Below are positions 23,957 through 32,497 of a stretch of 64,000 nt of DNA, in pieces. Source of the stretch: an uncultured archaeon (GTDB lineage: Archaea; Asgardarchaeota; Thorarchaeia; Thorarchaeales; Thorarchaeaceae); assembly GCA_964458565.1 (NCBI GenBank), contig CAYWJO010000005.1:52375-116374 (forward strand), read 5' to 3'. Under the pieces are notes generated by a model, which saw nothing but the letters and a program-made list of their open reading frames with translations, searched no databases and was not told the origin of the DNA. The position numbers and the translations under genes were made by a program. Within the stretch, counting starts at the first letter, position 1, and every line of letters begins with the position of its first letter.

Positions 23957-25141
23957 TTACCCTCCAAATGGATTCCTCGATCTTCTTTTTTCAAGTGTTA
24001 CATATGTCAATCCTGATAGTGCCATAAGTCTATCAATAATCATAGATGTTTCATTATTACTGATTCTTGCTCTTGCATCTGCCTCTAGTATAGGTGCAGG
24101 AATTCCATACTCCGGATGCTGCGTTGATAAAGGTAGTATTGCAGAGAGTGCTTTGTTTAGCTGGATAACTCCTCTATCCGGGTCAACTAATACTTCAACG
24201 CGTAAAGGCAAATCCTCACGTGCTGTTCTGATATATGTGACGAGAATTGAGGATGCCCATAAGGAAATGTCATCTGCTATAGAATTAGAATTCTGTGTTA
24301 TCTCAGTAGAGTATTTGAAAGCAAAGGTTCTTTCACCTTCATCCAGAAAGGTATCGAGTATATCACAGTCTCTTGAGATTTTGAGTAGCCATCTATAATC
24401 AACACCTTGAATTTTCTCAAAAATCTCTGGTTTTCTAAGAATGTGAGGAAGAATATCGCTCAAAATATTCACTATCTTAGTCGACCGACTATCCTTAACA
24501 ATACCGACCAGCAACAAATCTTTCTTCCTAGCTTTGTGGTATAGCTGTCGGTATAAGGCCATAACTTCTTGATACTTCTCATAAGCTAGAGTTCCCATTT
24601 GTGGCCTATCTCTTGGATGATGATATAGACTACCATCAATGAGGATAAGGTCTACATGAAACTCCTCAAGTATGGCCAAAGTAACTTTCAATTCTTCTGA
24701 TAAACGTTCAAGAGATGCCAATTGATCAAGCTCAGAACCCTGAAGCGTCAACATTACCGGTCTCACTTTCGGTTCGGGAAATGGAGAGGGGTAGAATTCC
24801 ACGGATGGTCCCTTTTCTGGACCAAATTGGAACACAACTGCCACACCCCGTGTAAGAATCAAATCGATAGATCTGAATCTCCTTTTAATAAGTCCTCCAT
24901 CAACTCCTGCAATCTTTAAGCCCTTGAGATGAGTTGGTTCAATTCTTGTAACAAAAGAAGTATCCACAACATCAGCTGCCACAGCTGGAAATCGTTTCAA
25001 ATCTATTTCTTTCTTTATATCTTGTAAAACTTTCCCAAATTGCTTTCGAGTAGTTTCCACTCTCTCTATTTCTTGGACCAGTAAAGATAATTCTCGCTCC
25101 CAAGACTGCATACCAATCACATCAGAGTAGAATTCTGACAT
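23957..25141 (-). CDS. nurA: DNA double-strand break repair nuclease NurA
   Basis: AGVDGG, LIDGSL, VGIVKDS, YGIPAPILEADARA. Confidence 0.9.
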   Translation of the reverse strand: MSEFYSDVIGMQSWERELSLLVQEIERVETTRKQFGKVLQDIKKEIDLKRFPAVAADVVDTSFVTRIEPTHLKGLKIAGVDGGLIKRRFRSIDLILTRGVAVVFQFGPEKGPSVEFYPSPFPEPKVRPVMLTLQGSELDQLASLERLSEELKVTLAILEEFHVDLILIDGSLYHHPRDRPQMGTLAYEKYQEVMALYRQLYHKARKKDLLLVGIVKDSRSTKIVNILSDILPHILRKPEIFEKIQGVDYRWLLKISRDCDILDTFLDEGERTFAFKYSTEITQNSNSIADDISLWASSILVTYIRTAREDLPLRVEVLVDPDRGVIQLNKALSAILPLSTQHPEYGIPAPILEADARARISNNETSMIIDRLMALSGLTYVTLEKRRSRNPFGG

Positions 25142-25171: not shown

Positions 25172-26851
25172 CTACTTGTCAGTTCTTCTTTTCTTATAGT
25201 CAACTGCTGCCCTTATTAGTCCCATATAAAGTGGATGCGGTTGACCTGGACGTGACTTGAATTCCGGGTGGTATTGCACTCCAATCCAGAATGGATGATT
25301 AATTATTTCTATAGCATTGATAATCTTTCCAGTATCATCATATGCTGAAACTATCAACCCTTTCTCTTTCATTCTGTGGATGTATCTATCAATGAGATGA
25401 TATCTATGACGAAATCTCTCTCGAATCGAATCCATGTTGTATAGTTTCTGCAGCAATGTTCCTTCAACAAATCTGACAACATGACCACCAAGTCTCATTG
25501 TTCCTCCTTTATCCTCAGTCTGCTTTTGTTCATCCATTAGATCTACAACTGGATATAGACTTTTCTCATCAACTTCTGTAGTGTGGGCTCCTTCCCAACC
25601 CATGATTTTCCTAGCAAAAGCCACAGTCCCAAGTTGTGCACCATAACAAATACCTAGAAATGGTATATTAGATTCAAATGTCACAGTTGCTGCATTAATC
25701 ATACCTTCAACCCCTCTCTCACCAAAACCAGGTGTTAGCAATACCCCTTCCACATCATCCAAATCCTCTCTCAAACAATCGATATCACATCTCTCTTCTG
25801 TTTCTATCCACTTGAATTTCACTCCGACTCCACCAACTGCAGCAGCATGAGCAAGAGACTCATTGATGCTCTTGTAAGAATCACTAAGTGTTGTATACTT
25901 ACCTGGCATCGCAATAGTTATTGATTCAGCTGAATCATGGAATTTCTCAACAATATCTTCCCATTCTTTTGTTTGCGGAATTCCTTGTTCAAATCCAAAA
26001 TGATCTACAATGATATCTCCAAGTCCTTGTTGTTCAAAGGATAATGGTAATTTGTATATCACCTTAATATCCGGATTTGAAATCACTCTTTGCTTTGGAA
26101 CATTACAGAATAAGGCTATCTTTTCTCTTGCGGACTCATTTAATTGGCTTTCTGCTCTACATACTATAATGTCAGGTTGTAATCCCAATCCCTGTAAGGT
26201 TCGAACACTGTGTTGTGTGGGTTTAGTCTTGAATTCTCCAACAGATTTCATATATGGTACCAAGGTTACATGTACAAATGCTACTCTATTATGTCCTAAT
26301 TCACTAGCTAGTTGTCTTACTGCTTCTTGAAAAGGCATAGCTTCGATATCACCAACAGTTCCTCCAATTTCTACAAGTAATACGTCAGGAACCGGGGGTT
26401 TGTTAACCACATCCCATATTCGTTTCTTTATCTGATCTGTAACATGTGGAATGATTTGTACAGTTCTTCCTAGAAATGTCCCTTTTCTTTCTCCTAGGAT
26501 GACAGAAACATAAATTTGTCCTGATGTGATATTTTGAGAAGGATGCACATCCATCCCTGTAAATCTCTCGTAAGTGCCAAAGTCCTGATCAATTTCAGAT
26601 ATTCTAAACTTGAAAGCACTTCCTGGTTCAAATGCCCAAGTCTGGTCCGTGACAAAGACTTCACCATGTTCAACAGGATTCAGGGTACCAGGATCAATAT
26701 TCAGATAAGGGTCAATTTTGACAATTCTTATACTCATTCCTCTGAATTGGAAAAGTTTTGCAATAGATGCAGTTGTAGCTCCCTTTCCAATACCAGAGAG
26801 GACACCACCTGTTACAAAAACAAATCGAGTTTTGTTTTGGTCTTGGGTCAA
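25172..26851 (-). CDS. pyrG: CTP synthase
   Basis: VTGGVLSGIGKG, KIDPYLN.DPGT, KTKPTQHSV, GICYG, QYHPEF. Confidence 0.98.
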   Translation of the reverse strand: MTQDQNKTRFVFVTGGVLSGIGKGATTASIAKLFQFRGMSIRIVKIDPYLNIDPGTLNPVEHGEVFVTDQTWAFEPGSAFKFRISEIDQDFGTYERFTGMDVHPSQNITSGQIYVSVILGERKGTFLGRTVQIIPHVTDQIKKRIWDVVNKPPVPDVLLVEIGGTVGDIEAMPFQEAVRQLASELGHNRVAFVHVTLVPYMKSVGEFKTKPTQHSVRTLQGLGLQPDIIVCRAESQLNESAREKIALFCNVPKQRVISNPDIKVIYKLPLSFEQQGLGDIIVDHFGFEQGIPQTKEWEDIVEKFHDSAESITIAMPGKYTTLSDSYKSINESLAHAAAVGGVGVKFKWIETEERCDIDCLREDLDDVEGVLLTPGFGERGVEGMINAATVTFESNIPFLGICYGAQLGTVAFARKIMGWEGAHTTEVDEKSLYPVVDLMDEQKQTEDKGGTMRLGGHVVRFVEGTLLQKLYNMDSIRERFRHRYHLIDRYIHRMKEKGLIVSAYDDTGKIINAIEIINHPFWIGVQYHPEFKSRPGQPHPLYMGLIRAAVDYKKRRTDK

Positions 26852-26948: not shown

Positions 26949-27530
26949 CTATGATACGGGTTTTGCCAAGACTGCACTTTTCAATGCATTTTCAAACAGG
27001 TATTGAAAAGCTTCTAATACATTAAAACCGTCTTTCGCTATACTTCTGAAAACAGGAATAGATGTTGGTAGATTTAGGTAGGACCTGATTTGATTTTCCT
27101 GTACTGCACTTTCTAGATCTTGCTTATTTAAACAGATAACTATTGGTAGTAACCTGTCTTGTTCCGAAATCATTGACATCAATTCATTCCAACTAGCTAG
27201 ATTCTCATCAAGAAGTGTTTCCTGCGAATCAACCATAAAAACAACTCCATCAGCACCTACAAGGACAACTTCTCTTGTTGATCTGTAAAAATCTTGACCT
27301 GTGGCAGACCAGACATGAGCATTGATAGTCCATCCATTTCCAAGATCGAATGGTATCGTTCCAAAATCACAGAACATAGTACGTCCTACAGTGTTTTCAA
27401 TTGAAGTCAACTTGTCTGCGTAATCAAGACTTGAGAAGAGCCAGCGGATTGCAGTTGTTTTACCACTCATTGCTGGTCCAAAGAAGACTATCTTCAATCC
27501 CAAAGTTCTACTACCATAATCAATTATCAT
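26949..27530 (-). CDS. MglA/Arf-like small GTPase
   Basis: G1 GPAMSGKTT, GRTMFCDF (compare MglA RTLFFDF), SATGQ, NKQD, SIA. Confidence 0.88.
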   Translation of the reverse strand: MIIDYGSRTLGLKIVFFGPAMSGKTTAIRWLFSSLDYADKLTSIENTVGRTMFCDFGTIPFDLGNGWTINAHVWSATGQDFYRSTREVVLVGADGVVFMVDSQETLLDENLASWNELMSMISEQDRLLPIVICLNKQDLESAVQENQIRSYLNLPTSIPVFRSIAKDGFNVLEAFQYLFENALKSAVLAKPVS

Positions 27531-27531
27531 T

Positions 27532-28452
27532 TTAACTACCCCACATACTATCTACCCAGGCTCCAAGTCCTGATAGGGTACCTCCCTTTACACAATCTGA
27601 GAAATCTTCATGCCATTCTGCCATGATAAAACGAATCAAATCGGAAAGCTCACCACCCTCCCAACCAATCGCTTCATAGAGATTTCTCTCCGTTAATGAT
27701 GTTGGTGCACCTAATTCCCTAGCAAGTCTTATTCTAGATAAGAGCATTACAGCTCTTCTGGCTGCATGAACATAGCTGCTTATTTCTTCGTCAAATACAT
27801 CCTGTGTCAACTTGACAGATTCATCATCCAATTCTAATACAGCGTTGATAATTTGTTCCGATACATTAACGCCTCTTAATGACTTTCGCAGAAGTCTTTT
27901 GATACGTTCCAAAGACTGTCGTTTTCTAGTAATGATTTTGGTTACAATCTTCTTCTCCAAGTCAAAGTTGGACGGGCTTGGTCTCATTAAGCTGAAGTTC
28001 ATCACTGAAGGCGAATTCACTCTAAGAACTCCACAACTTTCTGAGCTAGATAATATCTTATTCAATATCCCTTGAAGATCCTCTTCTGTGACTTTGATAC
28101 CAAGAATTCTGCTTTCCAGAGGAATTGATTGAATCCATGCCGAGAAATTAGTTATCCGATCAAGAGCGAGTCTGAGGTTTGATGAGAGTCCACAAACAAT
28201 AGTTCGATGCACTTCATAGTCATGTTTCTCTTCTTCCCAAACCGAAAACAACTCTTCCTGCGATGTAAAATCTCTCCAAAATACAAGTTTGTGTCGATGA
28301 GGACAAAGAAGTGTAAGACTCTCAGTCATATCATCAATCAATTCTACATCTTCACCAACTACAAAAATGGGTATCCTTCCTAAAATCGAATTGAGTAGTA
28401 ATGGGAAATCATCACCCATCAACTCAATCATTGCTAGTATTGAATAAGTCAT
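27532..28452 (-). CDS. Hypothetical protein, possibly cDENN-like
   Basis: LLNSILGRIPIFVVGEDVELIDDMTESLTLLCP resembles the cDENN helix-strand-helix-P pattern, followed by a helical C-terminal part. Lies between the Roadblock and GTPase genes. Confidence 0.45.
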   Translation of the reverse strand: MTYSILAMIELMGDDFPLLLNSILGRIPIFVVGEDVELIDDMTESLTLLCPHRHKLVFWRDFTSQEELFSVWEEEKHDYEVHRTIVCGLSSNLRLALDRITNFSAWIQSIPLESRILGIKVTEEDLQGILNKILSSSESCGVLRVNSPSVMNFSLMRPSPSNFDLEKKIVTKIITRKRQSLERIKRLLRKSLRGVNVSEQIINAVLELDDESVKLTQDVFDEEISSYVHAARRAVMLLSRIRLARELGAPTSLTERNLYEAIGWEGGELSDLIRFIMAEWHEDFSDCVKGGTLSGLGAWVDSMWGS

Positions 28453-29396
28453 GGCTCTCGCCTCGCTAGAAGAAGACTACCATCTGCTGCACCCGCAAGC
28501 AATAGCTCCTTTAGATCGTCTGGAACTGCAGATTTAACAAGTGAAGCAGATTCCAAAACTCTTCTTATTTCACTGATATAATGTTTGAGTAGGAGTCTCA
28601 TGAGACCTAGTTTTTGACTATTACGATCAACCCAGAGGCTGAATACTCCGTTTGGCACAGCATAAATGAAATGACGATTACTTCCTGTTTCACAAAGAAC
28701 AGTTTGAAGTGCACTATTTCTCAATGTTCTGACAACTCTTTCCGAAGCATCATGAAGTGCAAAAGACATAGCAGCAAGTCTATCATTTGTGAATCTCTCT
28801 AATGAAACACGAACTCCTCCACTAAGCGAAAGGAATACAGAATGAATATTTGGAATACTATCATGTATCTGACGAAGTAAGGCTCTAAGAGTGAGTGCTT
28901 GAGACCGGTCAAGTGATATCAGAGATCTTGTTACAGAATATTTTTTCCCTTGGCCTTCCGATACCGCAAAGCCTTCTAAGACCTGCTGTGTTTCATGCAT
29001 ACTGTATGAACGAAGGGGAGGAAGTCGACCATCTATGTGCTGCCTGAGAAGATAAACAAGGCGTGACAGACTATCTTTCATTTCAATAAACAAGGCTGCC
29101 AGATTTACCCTCGGTGCTGTGGTCACTGTCAGAAAGTAATCTTGGTCATTTGGAAGGGCAGCAAGAAACACCTTCGAAGTTTCAGATTCCATAAGGAGGT
29201 ATTTGAAATCGTTATGTATCAACTTTGCAACACCAAAAATAGCACAAGTAGATGACGCAACTGCAAACACTTCCTCTTTACTGAACCATACCCCCGCACT
29301 TGCAACGGGAAGTCCATCTTTTTGTATCAAGACTACATTTTCAACACCTGCAATCATCTTGATACTCTGCAGTGTTTCATTCAATTCTTCTGTCAC
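28449..29396 (-). CDS. Tandem Roadblock/LC7 (MglB-like) domain protein
   Basis: Two repeats: GVENVVLIQKDGLPVAS...VFAVASS and NIHSVFLSLSGG...RLAAMSFAL, ending in VNLAALF and KLGLMRL. Confidence 0.85.
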   Translation of the reverse strand: MTEELNETLQSIKMIAGVENVVLIQKDGLPVASAGVWFSKEEVFAVASSTCAIFGVAKLIHNDFKYLLMESETSKVFLAALPNDQDYFLTVTTAPRVNLAALFIEMKDSLSRLVYLLRQHIDGRLPPLRSYSMHETQQVLEGFAVSEGQGKKYSVTRSLISLDRSQALTLRALLRQIHDSIPNIHSVFLSLSGGVRVSLERFTNDRLAAMSFALHDASERVVRTLRNSALQTVLCETGSNRHFIYAVPNGVFSLWVDRNSQKLGLMRLLLKHYISEIRRVLESASLVKSAVPDDLKELLLAGAADGSLLLARREP

Positions 29397-29511
29397 TTTT
29401 CAGCCTCATGGATAATATGGTAAATCCAAGATACTGTCTAAGAAGATGCTATTTAATCTCCACACAGTTTATCAAACACCACATACACGAAACTAAGAAC
29501 ACACAAACAGA

Positions 29512-30825
29512 TTACATATGAATTAACGCTGCATCAGGAGCCTCTTGAAATATCTCTCGAGCTGCACGACCTACTTTAACTCTGAATCTATCAGATGTAT
29601 ATACCCGAATCACATCAAAATAACCTCTCATCATATTGGCAATATTCGAGTAGTCTGATAGATTATGAGAAACTTTTTTCCCTTCAATTATTTCGAATAC
29701 TCTAATCTCCATTGGTTTGACCTGATAGGGATTGTAGGGTACGGACGGAAGGGTTGGCACATCCACTATTACCTCCTCCGATGCAATACCCACAGTTTCA
29801 GCTATTTCAATTTGAATACTCTCTCTAACTTTTTTCTTGGTAAGAATCTTAGAAACAAACCTATCTTCGGTATGCAAGACTTTCTCAAATGCTGATTTGT
29901 AGAGAACTCTACTATCTAATAGATTAACAATACGTACTGCTTCTTTTGCCTCTTCGGACTCAGTTCGGTCAATTTGCCTTATTTGCGAAATCAATGAAAC
30001 ATCATCTAAGACTAGAAACTCATCCGGAGTGGAAAAGCTAGTAAGATTCAAGGTTTTATCTGCAGCATGCATTAGGTTTACGAGCATTACTTCGACACTT
30101 CTAACAGCTTTGTGATAATACACATTCAAAAACATCTCATATCTTGCAACTAGAAAAGCTTCAAGAGCCCCTCTTGCTGCTAAATCAAATTCAAGAGTTT
30201 TTTCCTTAGATACATCCAAACTCCGTATCAATCGATGTATATCGACAAGTCCGTAGTTTACACCACAATAGAAAGAGTCCCGAATGAGATAATCCATCTT
30301 ATCAGCATCTACCTGTCCGGCTACTATCCCACTTATTACCCCATCAAAATTCTTTACTCGACGCCCCCGTACCAGATCAGCAATCCGCTTTTTTGATATC
30401 CCTCCTTTCTCCATTATATCTCCTACTGCACTCTTCTTTATCATCCACTCTGTAACATCTTCATGATTCATACCACGATTCTCAATCAAAGCTTCTTCAA
30501 AGACATGACTGAATGGACCGTGACCTAAATCATGTAACAATCCTGCAATTCGTATGTCCTGTAATACATCATCTCCGAGTCCTAAAAGTGGCAAAAGCCT
30601 ACTTCCAGTGAGACCGGCTAGATACATTGCACCAATACAATGACCGAATCTAGTATGCTCAGCTGTTGGATAAACAAAATGTCCTCCTGAGAGTTGTTTG
30701 ATTCTACGTAGTCTCTGATATGGCTCAGAATCTATAATCCCCTTTTCAACTTCAGTCAATCCAATTAACCCATGAATGGGATCATTAATTTCCATTATGA
30801 AATCCAAATTACCACCTACTGTCAT
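29512..30825 (-). CDS. HD-domain phosphohydrolase (SAMHD1-like dNTPase family)
   Basis: DPIHG, QRLRRIKQL, HTRFGHCIG, LLHDLGHGPFSH, DADKMDYLIRD. Confidence 0.92.
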   Translation of the reverse strand: MTVGGNLDFIMEINDPIHGLIGLTEVEKGIIDSEPYQRLRRIKQLSGGHFVYPTAEHTRFGHCIGAMYLAGLTGSRLLPLLGLGDDVLQDIRIAGLLHDLGHGPFSHVFEEALIENRGMNHEDVTEWMIKKSAVGDIMEKGGISKKRIADLVRGRRVKNFDGVISGIVAGQVDADKMDYLIRDSFYCGVNYGLVDIHRLIRSLDVSKEKTLEFDLAARGALEAFLVARYEMFLNVYYHKAVRSVEVMLVNLMHAADKTLNLTSFSTPDEFLVLDDVSLISQIRQIDRTESEEAKEAVRIVNLLDSRVLYKSAFEKVLHTEDRFVSKILTKKKVRESIQIEIAETVGIASEEVIVDVPTLPSVPYNPYQVKPMEIRVFEIIEGKKVSHNLSDYSNIANMMRGYFDVIRVYTSDRFRVKVGRAAREIFQEAPDAALIHM

Positions 30826-31634
30826 ATCTTAGGGTCAAACTGTCTTATCTCACGAATCATCACTTCTGCTGAACTAATTTGTGAAACACACAATGGAAGA
30901 TGAATACTATCAGCAATTTTAACTGCCAAGGGGTCCAACTCTTTCACACCCTGAAGAATCACGACTGCCGGTTTTACTGCAACAGAGGTTCCCATCTGAC
31001 TAGCTTTTATTGCTACCATCGGTGATCGACCTGTAGACACATTTGTGAGTATTGCAGCTCTTTGTGTTGTACCACCATAGAGCCGTAACAATTGTTGTGG
31101 TGTAAGATTCACTATTGCTTTCACACTATCTAAAACAGTATATCCATATATGTCACGTTCAAGCAGACTCTTATGAGTCAACACCTTACAATTCAGTTTT
31201 TCTACTAGTACTCTTGCGGGAACAGGAACTCCAAACTCCCTACTGTCGAGTATAGCTTCGGACCCAATTTCCGGAGATATTAGCTTTTCAAGAGCCATGA
31301 CAACACGACTGCCACTGGCCGCATCCATGTCTATTAATCCCTCAACAAATCGTTTGATTGTATCAACACGTGGAGATTTACGTCTTCCACTTTCGTAATC
31401 ACTTATTACAGAGGGAGATACATCCAGATGGTTTGCAAGAGTCTTTTGAGATATTTGAAATCTTTTCCGCCATCTCTTCATTACTCTACCCGGATCGTTT
31501 TCTGCTAAACAAATTTCGCCGGCCATTGTTTCAGCAAGCCGTTGAAGCGACTCACTCCAATCCATGAATATCATCTCGTGTCTGTAACAGATAAGACTTG
31601 CGTAAAAGTCGATATAGATTACGTCAAATACCAA
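30822..31634 (-). CDS. Archaeal XRE-type HTH transcriptional regulator (COG1709-like); real start likely ~31565
   Basis: MAGEI...PG..MKRWR, SVISDYESGRRKSP, STGRSPMVAIK. Confidence 0.88.
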   Translation of the reverse strand: MVFDVIYIDFYASLICYRHEMIFMDWSESLQRLAETMAGEICLAENDPGRVMKRWRKRFQISQKTLANHLDVSPSVISDYESGRRKSPRVDTIKRFVEGLIDMDAASGSRVVMALEKLISPEIGSEAILDSREFGVPVPARVLVEKLNCKVLTHKSLLERDIYGYTVLDSVKAIVNLTPQQLLRLYGGTTQRAAILTNVSTGRSPMVAIKASQMGTSVAVKPAVVILQGVKELDPLAVKIADSIHLPLCVSQISSAEVMIREIRQFDPKI

Positions 31635-31726: not shown

Positions 31727-32497
31727 ATGTTCTTCATTTTTATCGTTGGCATGGCCGGATCCGGAAAATCTCTCTTGACTGCATCACTTGAGAAGTGGTT
31801 AGTAGGATCTAATATGAGTGTTTCAGTTGTAAATATCGACCCCGGAGTTGAGAGCCCACCTTATACAAGTGATGTTGATATAAGAGAGTATGTAGACTAT
31901 GGTGAAATAATGAAACAATATGGCCTTGGACCAAATGGCGCTCTTGTTGCTTCACTTGATATGGCACTAAACTATGTTACTGATATTCGAGAAGAAATCG
32001 CAGAAGAAAGCAGGGACTATGTGCTTGTTGATTGTCCAGGACAAATGGAATTATTCGCATATCGTAATTCTGGACCTCTTATGGTTTCAAGTCTGCATGG
32101 AACAGATTCTGCACTTTCCCTCTATCTTATGGATTCTAACATTGCTAGGACTGCTACAGGTTATATTGCCTCACTCTTGTTAGGAATATCAATCAATATC
32201 CGCTTTGGACTACCCCAACTTAACGTCTTGAGTAAATCTGATATATTAACTCCTGAAGAACTAATCAAACTTGAAATGTGGTCCGATGAACCGTATACAC
32301 TCGAAGAGGCTGTTGATGAGTCAAGTACGGGTCTAATACGCGAATACTCGAAATCAACCCTGGTGATGCTGGATCAAATGGGTGGTGGTACGAGTATCAT
32401 CCCCGTATCAGCAAAACAGATGACCAACATCGACACGCTATATGGTGGAATTCAGAGAATTCTGGCTGGTGGCGAAGATTATCTTTCATTTGAGTAG
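31727..32497 (+). CDS. GPN-loop GTPase
   Basis: GMAGSGKS, NIDPG, YGLGPNGA, DCPGQMELF, SKSD. Confidence 0.93.
   Translation: MFFIFIVGMAGSGKSLLTASLEKWLVGSNMSVSVVNIDPGVESPPYTSDVDIREYVDYGEIMKQYGLGPNGALVASLDMALNYVTDIREEIAEESRDYVLVDCPGQMELFAYRNSGPLMVSSLHGTDSALSLYLMDSNIARTATGYIASLLLGISINIRFGLPQLNVLSKSDILTPEELIKLEMWSDEPYTLEEAVDESSTGLIREYSKSTLVMLDQMGGGTSIIPVSAKQMTNIDTLYGGIQRILAGGEDYLSFE

Follow-up and report, generated by a model that had tools for sequence, protein, structure and literature searches.

What do three short, tightly packed genes in the genome of an uncultured archaeon encode, and is the middle one a relative of the eukaryotic DENN proteins? The genes lie in a stretch of 64,000 nucleotides (the window, to which all coordinates below refer) from contig CAYWJO010000005.1 of a member of the Thorarchaeaceae. 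Eukaryotes rely on DENN, longin/Roadblock and small-GTPase modules for membrane traffic and nutrient signalling; examples are the Rab guanine nucleotide exchange factors (GEFs), folliculin (FLCN), C9orf72 and the Ragulator-Rag system. An archaeal counterpart that is compact and translationally coupled and has a single copy of every component is a tractable system for asking what the DENN domain originally did and which GTPase it first served. An earlier reading, made from the sequence alone, had proposed that the three genes encode a tandem Roadblock protein, a DENN-like protein recognized by eye and a GTPase of the MglA type. We report here that the first gene encodes an asymmetric fusion of two Roadblock domains, that the second is predicted to encode a DENN-superfamily protein, that the third encodes an MglA-type GTPase, and that the trio is kept in the same order in several groups of Asgard archaea.

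The operon itself has already been described from genome comparisons in 2020/2021, and the locus in the window is a Thorarchaeota copy of it. Liu et al. (bioRxiv 10.1101/2020.10.19.343400, Fig. 5b) predicted an operon of a Roadblock protein (LAMTOR1-like), a small GTPase and a DENN-domain protein, which they called 'conserved in most Asgard archaea', compared with folliculin and Ragulator, and proposed to have a GEF-like role; the GTPase was 'Rab-like' in their description, not a Rag, and further DENN paralogue families were mentioned. We see no essential difference between their operon and the present locus, with the GTPase relabelled as MglA-type and the Roadblock protein described as an asymmetric two-domain fusion. 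The idea of the sequence-only reading that such a module prefigures eukaryotic Roadblock-DENN-GTPase signalling is likewise not new, as Liu et al. proposed it for this operon. In the literature searched, no experimental follow-up of their proposal was found. The additions made here are small, namely the MglA assignment of the GTPase, the asymmetry of the Roadblock protein, a census of gene order and one variant locus; since both the operon and its probable meaning have been published before, the locus is a further copy with refinements and no discovery.

Arrangement of the three genes

The open reading frames (ORFs) of the trio, from the ORF list of the window, all lie on the minus strand: gene 1 at 28449-29396 (315 residues), gene 2 at 27532-28452 (306 residues) and gene 3 at 26949-27530 (193 residues). 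Gene 1 starts with GTG. The start codon ATG of gene 2 and the stop codon TGA of gene 1 lie in a 4-nucleotide overlap (ATGA), within CCATGACT, and genes 2 and 3 meet at TAAaATG with a gap of 1 nucleotide, so the tight coupling first described for these genes, one 4-nucleotide overlap and one 1-nucleotide gap, is as it was stated. All three are coupled at the level of translation. They are also conserved and keep their collinearity from one Asgard class to another, far beyond what would be expected by chance.

The middle protein and its predicted DENN fold

Candidatus Thorarchaeota metagenome-assembled genomes (MAGs) are the source of all homologues of the gene 2 protein in the range of 70-90% identity, and these homologues are annotated there as hypothetical. 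An exhaustive HMMER search widened these to a family of proteins of about 300 residues (orthologue length 293-309) that falls into 68 clusters at 50% identity and extends down to 20% identity. Its conservation peaks in an N-terminal helix-strand-helix motif, LLxRxPIxVxG...L..L.PHR; across the family P28 and R53 do not vary, while R26, E75, R83, W106, E166 and E279 are nearly invariant. The N-terminal pattern that had been likened to the cDENN core is the best-conserved part of a genuine protein family.

A confident AlphaFold2 (AF2) model built on the family alignment (predicted local distance difference test, pLDDT, 90.8; predicted template modelling score, pTM, 0.86) has an alpha/beta domain at residues 1-160 followed by a helical domain at 164-303, with helices at 164-192, 209-246, 255-262, 269-280 and 294-303. 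From the alignment, the conservation and the model, we describe the first part (residues 1-160; 27973-28452, minus strand) as a cDENN-like domain, and from the predicted helices and the reach of the structural alignments we describe the second (residues 164-303; 27544-27963, minus strand) as a dDENN-like one. Neither the sequence nor the family alignment has a Walker A motif in the beta1-alpha loop. A Foldseek search of the Protein Data Bank (PDB) with this model gave folliculin in its top five rows (E 9e-4 to 2e-3, prob 1.0), followed by DENND1B, DENND1A and C9orf72. VIA-align, an exhaustive search independent of Foldseek, ranked DENND10 (8p0v_M, Z 13.6) and FLCN (Z 12.9 and 12.8) above C9orf72 (Z 11.4), SMCR8 (Z 11.0) and DENND1A (6ekk_A, Z 9.8). 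The alignments to DENND10, FLCN, C9orf72 and SMCR8 take in both domains, over 186-211 residues, and reach position 282-297 of gene 2; on the other side only the DENN parts of the partners are matched (FLCN 345-558, C9orf72 202-468, SMCR8 704-911). P-loop ATPases were found with Z of at most 10.1, mostly over residues 1-160.

Family-level comparisons give the same picture. Three of 36 family members match Pfam Folliculin_C (best E 4.8e-4, below the curated cut-offs) and one of the 36 matches Pfam DENN (E 0.093, also below the cut-off). The language-model neighbours of gene 2 are clusters of C9orf72-like, Folliculin_C/SMCR8_C, SPA, DENND11 and Avl9 proteins, and an Atlas fold search returned FAM45, SMCR8, DENND11 and AVL9. 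Together, the Foldseek, VIA-align, Pfam family, language-model and Atlas results lead us to place gene 2 (27532-28452) in the DENN superfamily; what had been a guess by eye now has a DENN fold behind it in three structural searches that agree. In the AF2 model the protein starts directly at the first cDENN helix (residues 5-24), and a longin or uDENN domain is absent from the chain. Gene 2 would thus encode cDENN plus dDENN only, not a full tripartite DENN module, and as modelled the protein is comparable to the C-terminal half of folliculin.

No fused longer form was seen among the proteins of 546-2000 residues searched with the family profile, a result that is weak evidence. Three longer proteins (P0136, P0182 and P0186; 370-434 residues) have no extra Pfam domain, and P0187, considered as a fused form, was rejected as an unrelated immunoglobulin-repeat protein.

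The GTPase

Pfam places the gene 3 protein (26949-27530) only broadly, with matches to Arf, Ras and Roc. A phmmer search against PDB sequences is more specific: the best match is MglA (E 2.5e-28, 102 bits) and the next is Rab7 (E 1.1e-10, 45 bits), the four MglA entries standing far above all other matches. The protein has the P-loop GPAMSGKT and an NKxD motif, NKQD. In the phmmer alignment its GRTMFCDF pairs with DRTLFFDF of MglA, the motif that bears the intrinsic arginine finger, and its SATGQ pairs with TVPGQ, such that S75 replaces the G3 aspartate of Ras (Asp57) and the catalytic glutamine is retained; R50 and Q79 align to R53 and Q82 of Myxococcus xanthus MglA. We inspected 19 orthologues from ten genome families, in which the P-loop, G49-R50-T51, T77-G78-Q79 and N135-K136-x-D138 are invariant, and the position of the G3 aspartate is serine or threonine in every orthologue aligned. 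The gap between 102 and 45 bits and the MglA-type motifs together identify it as a GTPase of the MglA type, which carries its own catalytic arginine (R50) and glutamine (Q79). The two signatures from which the sequence-only reading had argued, GRTMFCDF and a SATGQ without the G3 aspartate, are in this way aligned to their MglA counterparts and fall on invariant positions.

The Roadblock protein

The Roadblock fold is found as a dimer in MglB, in Ragulator and in the C-terminal domains of the Rag proteins, where it docks small GTPases. The gene 1 protein (28449-29396), a fusion of the MglB/LAMTOR kind, matches Pfam Robl_LC7 (PF03259) in two stretches (E 1.1e-9). An AF2 model built from 18 orthologues (pLDDT 76.6, pTM 0.74) contains the alpha-beta-beta-alpha-beta-beta-beta-alpha unit twice, at residues 1-118 and 164-282, joined by a linker of low confidence that holds an invariant PP, and ends in a short, conserved C-terminal helix (residues 293-300) that is also seen in the orthologue alignment. 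The two halves can be assigned separately. Domain 1 (29043-29396, minus strand) is aligned by VIA-align to Roadblock3 of MK-D1 (9jue_D, Z 11.6, root-mean-square deviation (rmsd) 1.6, 114 residues aligned), MglB (3t1r_A, Z 10.4), the Roadblock protein of Thor SMTZ1-45 (7f8m_A, Z 10.2) and LAMTOR (2zl1_B, Z 9.8), with a Streptomyces Roadblock protein in the same range (all Z 9.8-11.6). Domain 2 (28551-28907, minus strand), recognized from its predicted secondary structure and by VIA-align, matches dynein LC7/roadblock chains over residues 167-262 (7kek_G, Z 6.8; 9e5c_5q, Z 6.5). Foldseek agrees for the Roadblock domains, and its matches include the solved MglA-MglB complexes 6h5b_B and 6izw. The fused pseudo-dimer of the sequence-only reading is, as regards the two fused domains, borne out by Pfam, by the repeated unit in the model and by both structural searches.

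The halves evolve differently. Mean identity to 14 orthologues from outside the Thor group is 40% in domain 1 and 25% in domain 2, and domain 1 holds nearly all the invariant residues of the protein (G17, V18, Q25, D27, G28, P30, G35, W37, E42, A52 and N98). The protein is therefore an asymmetric two-domain fusion with a better conserved first half. The two halves may be packed like an MglB dimer: the pTM of 0.74 suggests a defined arrangement of the two domains. Two-domain matches to Mon1/Ccz1 came at an rmsd of about 19 A.

Conservation across the Asgard archaea

The profile of the DENN family matched 173 of the 301 Asgard genomes searched. By genome family, the counts are 74 of 76 in f1, 57 of 68 in f9, 15 of 19 in f12, 4 of 4 in both f3 and f15, and 5 of 7 in f24, while the profile matched none of the 11 genomes in f14 and none of the 11 in f27. 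The order Roadblock-DENN-MglA is found at 29 of the 30 best loci, at 8 of 9 loci that we picked from the remaining families and in one more genome of the same order as the window; altogether 38 of 39 genomes keep it, both exceptions being one and the same locus in genome G138. A second sample, of related loci in 80 species genomes, was found with an alignment of the Roadblock protein instead, and the order holds at all 76 uncut loci, the other four ending at contig ends. The two samples come from one genome collection, and some genomes may be in both. Among the named MAGs with the operon are members of the Thor-, Hermod-, Odin-, Baldr- and Promethearchaeota; Thor SMTZ1-45 is one of them. The trio that the sequence-only reading took for a module is thus conserved.

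The exceptional genome, G138 of family f9, is a natural variant of the operon from which the DENN gene has been excised. Its Roadblock and MglA genes are directly adjacent (L040, G138:C76) with no DENN gene between them, and its sole DENN orthologue is on another contig (L039, G138:C139), beside a pyruvate formate-lyase-like gene. This arrangement fits a view of Roadblock and MglA as the core pair.

Divergent DENN-like paralogues also exist outside the trio. At L045:3052-4936, in a Promethearchaeota MAG (GCA_054681365.1), two divergent DENN-like genes of 304 and 311 residues are adjacent, with no GTPase or Roadblock gene beside them; the upstream one (304 residues) matches the N-terminal cDENN motif (E 5e-7), and a relationship of this gene to the double-Roadblock protein was ruled out by hhalign. 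The two could be an archaeal DENN-DENN pair that recalls FLCN-FNIP or C9orf72-SMCR8. Weak profile matches (E 1e-3 to 1e-6) were obtained at L052-L057 (genomes G297, G102, G026 and G112) in ORFs of 320-404 residues. They cover only the first 50-80 positions, which are those of the conserved cDENN helix-strand-helix motif, and probably represent the additional families of DENN paralogues to which Liu et al. refer.

A model for the operon and its alternatives

We favour, with a moderate degree of confidence, a reading of the operon as a self-contained, three-component small-GTPase switch with a Roadblock platform that is a GTPase-activating protein (GAP) and a DENN protein as modulator. The nearest precedent is the MglA-MglB switch of Myxococcus xanthus and Thermus thermophilus. 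As there, the GTPase has an intrinsic arginine finger, no G3 aspartate and the RTxFxDF motif on beta2, and it is genetically coupled to a Roadblock protein; the bacterial system differs in that MglB is a homodimer of single-Roadblock chains, where gene 1 fuses two, and in that bacteria lack a DENN partner, its place being taken by RomR/RomX, RomY and MglC. The MglB dimer docks a single MglA and works as a GAP by positioning the arginine and glutamine of MglA, and its exchange activity comes by way of the C-terminal helix (PMC6785124; PMC13408092). The nucleotide state of GTPases is also what DENN modules work on, whether as GEFs or as members of longin-DENN GAP complexes (PMC12290439). The MglB precedent and this action of DENN modules lead us to read the Roadblock protein as the GAP platform and the DENN protein as an exchange-promoting subunit. 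In such a switch, the double-Roadblock protein would act as an intramolecular MglB-like dimer, would bind one MglA-type GTPase mainly through its conserved domain 1, and would stimulate hydrolysis of GTP by positioning the arginine and glutamine of the GTPase itself. The DENN protein would join this platform as a third subunit, so that the two reconstitute in trans the longin/Roadblock-DENN layout known from folliculin, C9orf72-SMCR8 and the DENND proteins, and it would modulate the nucleotide cycle, the likeliest mode being that it promotes exchange and the alternative that it tunes the GAP activity. A three-chain complex prediction (Roadblock protein, GTPase and DENN partner) gave ipSAE values of 0.13 and 0.02 against a mark of 0.32 in a run without controls, and speaks neither for nor against binding.

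Several considerations weigh against this reading. Searches of Pfam and NCBIfam with the gene 2 protein gave no significant match, and searches of PDB sequences with phmmer and with the family profile returned no DENN protein, only spurious rows of ferritin and designed proteins, so that its DENN homology rests mainly on predicted structure. The binding, GAP and GEF roles assigned above are carried over from known systems. DENN modules can be GEFs, like DENND1, or parts of GAP complexes, like FLCN-FNIP and C9orf72-SMCR8, and for this reason the direction of regulation is unreadable from the fold. Finally, in Myxococcus both GAP and exchange activity can come from MglB alone, so that a regulatory role is not required of the DENN protein.

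This last point leads to the alternative that survives best, although we consider it rather unlikely: the Roadblock protein alone would provide GAP and exchange functions, and the DENN protein would be an effector or adaptor that binds GTP-bound MglA or the Roadblock protein and transmits or localizes the signal, as is now proposed for RomR-RomX in Myxococcus. Such a division of labour would be in keeping with the G138 locus, where the DENN gene has moved away and the other two are still adjacent, with the C-terminal helix of the double-Roadblock protein, whose position recalls the C-terminal helix of MglB, and with the dual GAP/GEF properties of MglB and the effector role of RomRX (PMC6785124; PMC13408092). 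The DENN gene lies between the other two genes, however, and is translationally coupled to both in nearly all genomes, which is more typical of a stoichiometric subunit. Moreover, every DENN module characterized to our knowledge acts on the nucleotide state of a GTPase, and this too speaks against an effector.

The FLCN-FNIP and C9orf72-SMCR8 complexes suggest another possibility. Their DENN halves are the best match for the predicted cDENN plus dDENN fold of gene 2, and these complexes likewise engage Roadblock/longin platforms and a small GTPase. The Roadblock and DENN proteins might then form a joint GAP complex of this type with no exchange activity, the DENN protein being only a scaffold. 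We think this improbable. The structural matches to the DENN domains of FLCN, C9orf72 and SMCR8, all of which work in longin-DENN GAP complexes (PMC12290439), are its best argument, but those GAPs supply an arginine finger in trans from the longin domain, whereas the gene 3 protein has an invariant finger of its own and does not need one. The eukaryotic complexes also consist of two paired chains, each of which contains both longin and DENN, whereas the operon has a separate Roadblock gene and a single DENN protein, and their substrates are Rag or Arf GTPases, not MglA.

That gene 2 is instead a degenerate P-loop ATPase domain of the PilT/GspE/RecA-like kind with a helical tail, its DENN likeness reflecting only a shared ancient alpha/beta sandwich, is very improbable, for although secretion-ATPase and RecA-like folds match residues 1-160 with Z 7-10 and appear in the Foldseek and Atlas lists as well, DENN-family chains outrank them and align over both domains to 282-297, the beta1-alpha loop has no Walker A, the sequence matches of the family go to Folliculin_C and DENN and not to ATPase families, and the language-model neighbours all belong to DENN-clan families.

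The switch with a Roadblock GAP platform and a DENN modulator can be set beside the remaining eukaryotic systems, DENND1A/B-Rab35 and DENND10. Gene 2 shares their cDENN plus dDENN architecture as modelled, but these are tripartite modules, while gene 2 has no uDENN/longin domain and no Pfam DENN match. A more speculative extension, which we regard as possible but doubtful, is that the operon represents an ancestral, split form of the longin/Roadblock-DENN regulators. DENN modules would first have evolved as partners of a Roadblock platform that acts on an MglA-type GTPase with its own arginine finger, and later they would have been fused to longin domains and re-targeted to Rab, Arf and Rag GTPases; the Roadblock and DENN proteins would together be a combined GAP/GEF 'cycler' for one GTPase.

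Surroundings of the operon

Upstream of gene 1 is an AT-rich spacer of 115 nucleotides (29397-29511, minus strand) that parts the operon from an HD-domain gene and that, judging from its sequence, is probably the promoter region. A scan for sigma-70-type promoters gave fewer sites than in shuffled sequences, a type of scan that is inapplicable to archaea. Downstream, a spacer of 97 nucleotides precedes a CTP synthase gene with its own TTG start. Locus DNA is present in salt-marsh metagenomes. Two 151-nucleotide contigs of a salt-marsh metatranscriptome (run X9) are identical to 28277-28567 and span the junction of genes 1 and 2; they are a weak hint of expression in situ, as DNA carry-over is possible and contigs cannot show a transcript, and the lack of coverage over the rest of the locus carries no weight.

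The upstream gene encodes a phosphohydrolase with HD and HD_assoc_2 domains (29512-30825, minus strand) and the downstream one is the CTP synthase gene (25172-26851, minus strand). They flank the trio in 68 and 57, respectively, of the 80 related loci, as well as in a second family of the same order, and the five-gene block (HD, trio, CTP synthase) is conserved at the level of the order and not in other Asgard classes. We considered these two genes as parts of the module and rejected them, as their place beside the trio is peculiar to the Thor order. Further upstream, a gene for an HTH_3 protein (30822-31634, minus strand) runs into the start of the HD gene, and a GPN-loop GTPase (31727-32497, plus strand; PF03029, E 1e-55) is encoded on the opposite strand about 2.3 kb from the operon. 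A gene for a NurA-domain nuclease (23957-25141, minus strand; PF09376, E 1.8e-24) immediately follows the CTP synthase gene on the downstream side.

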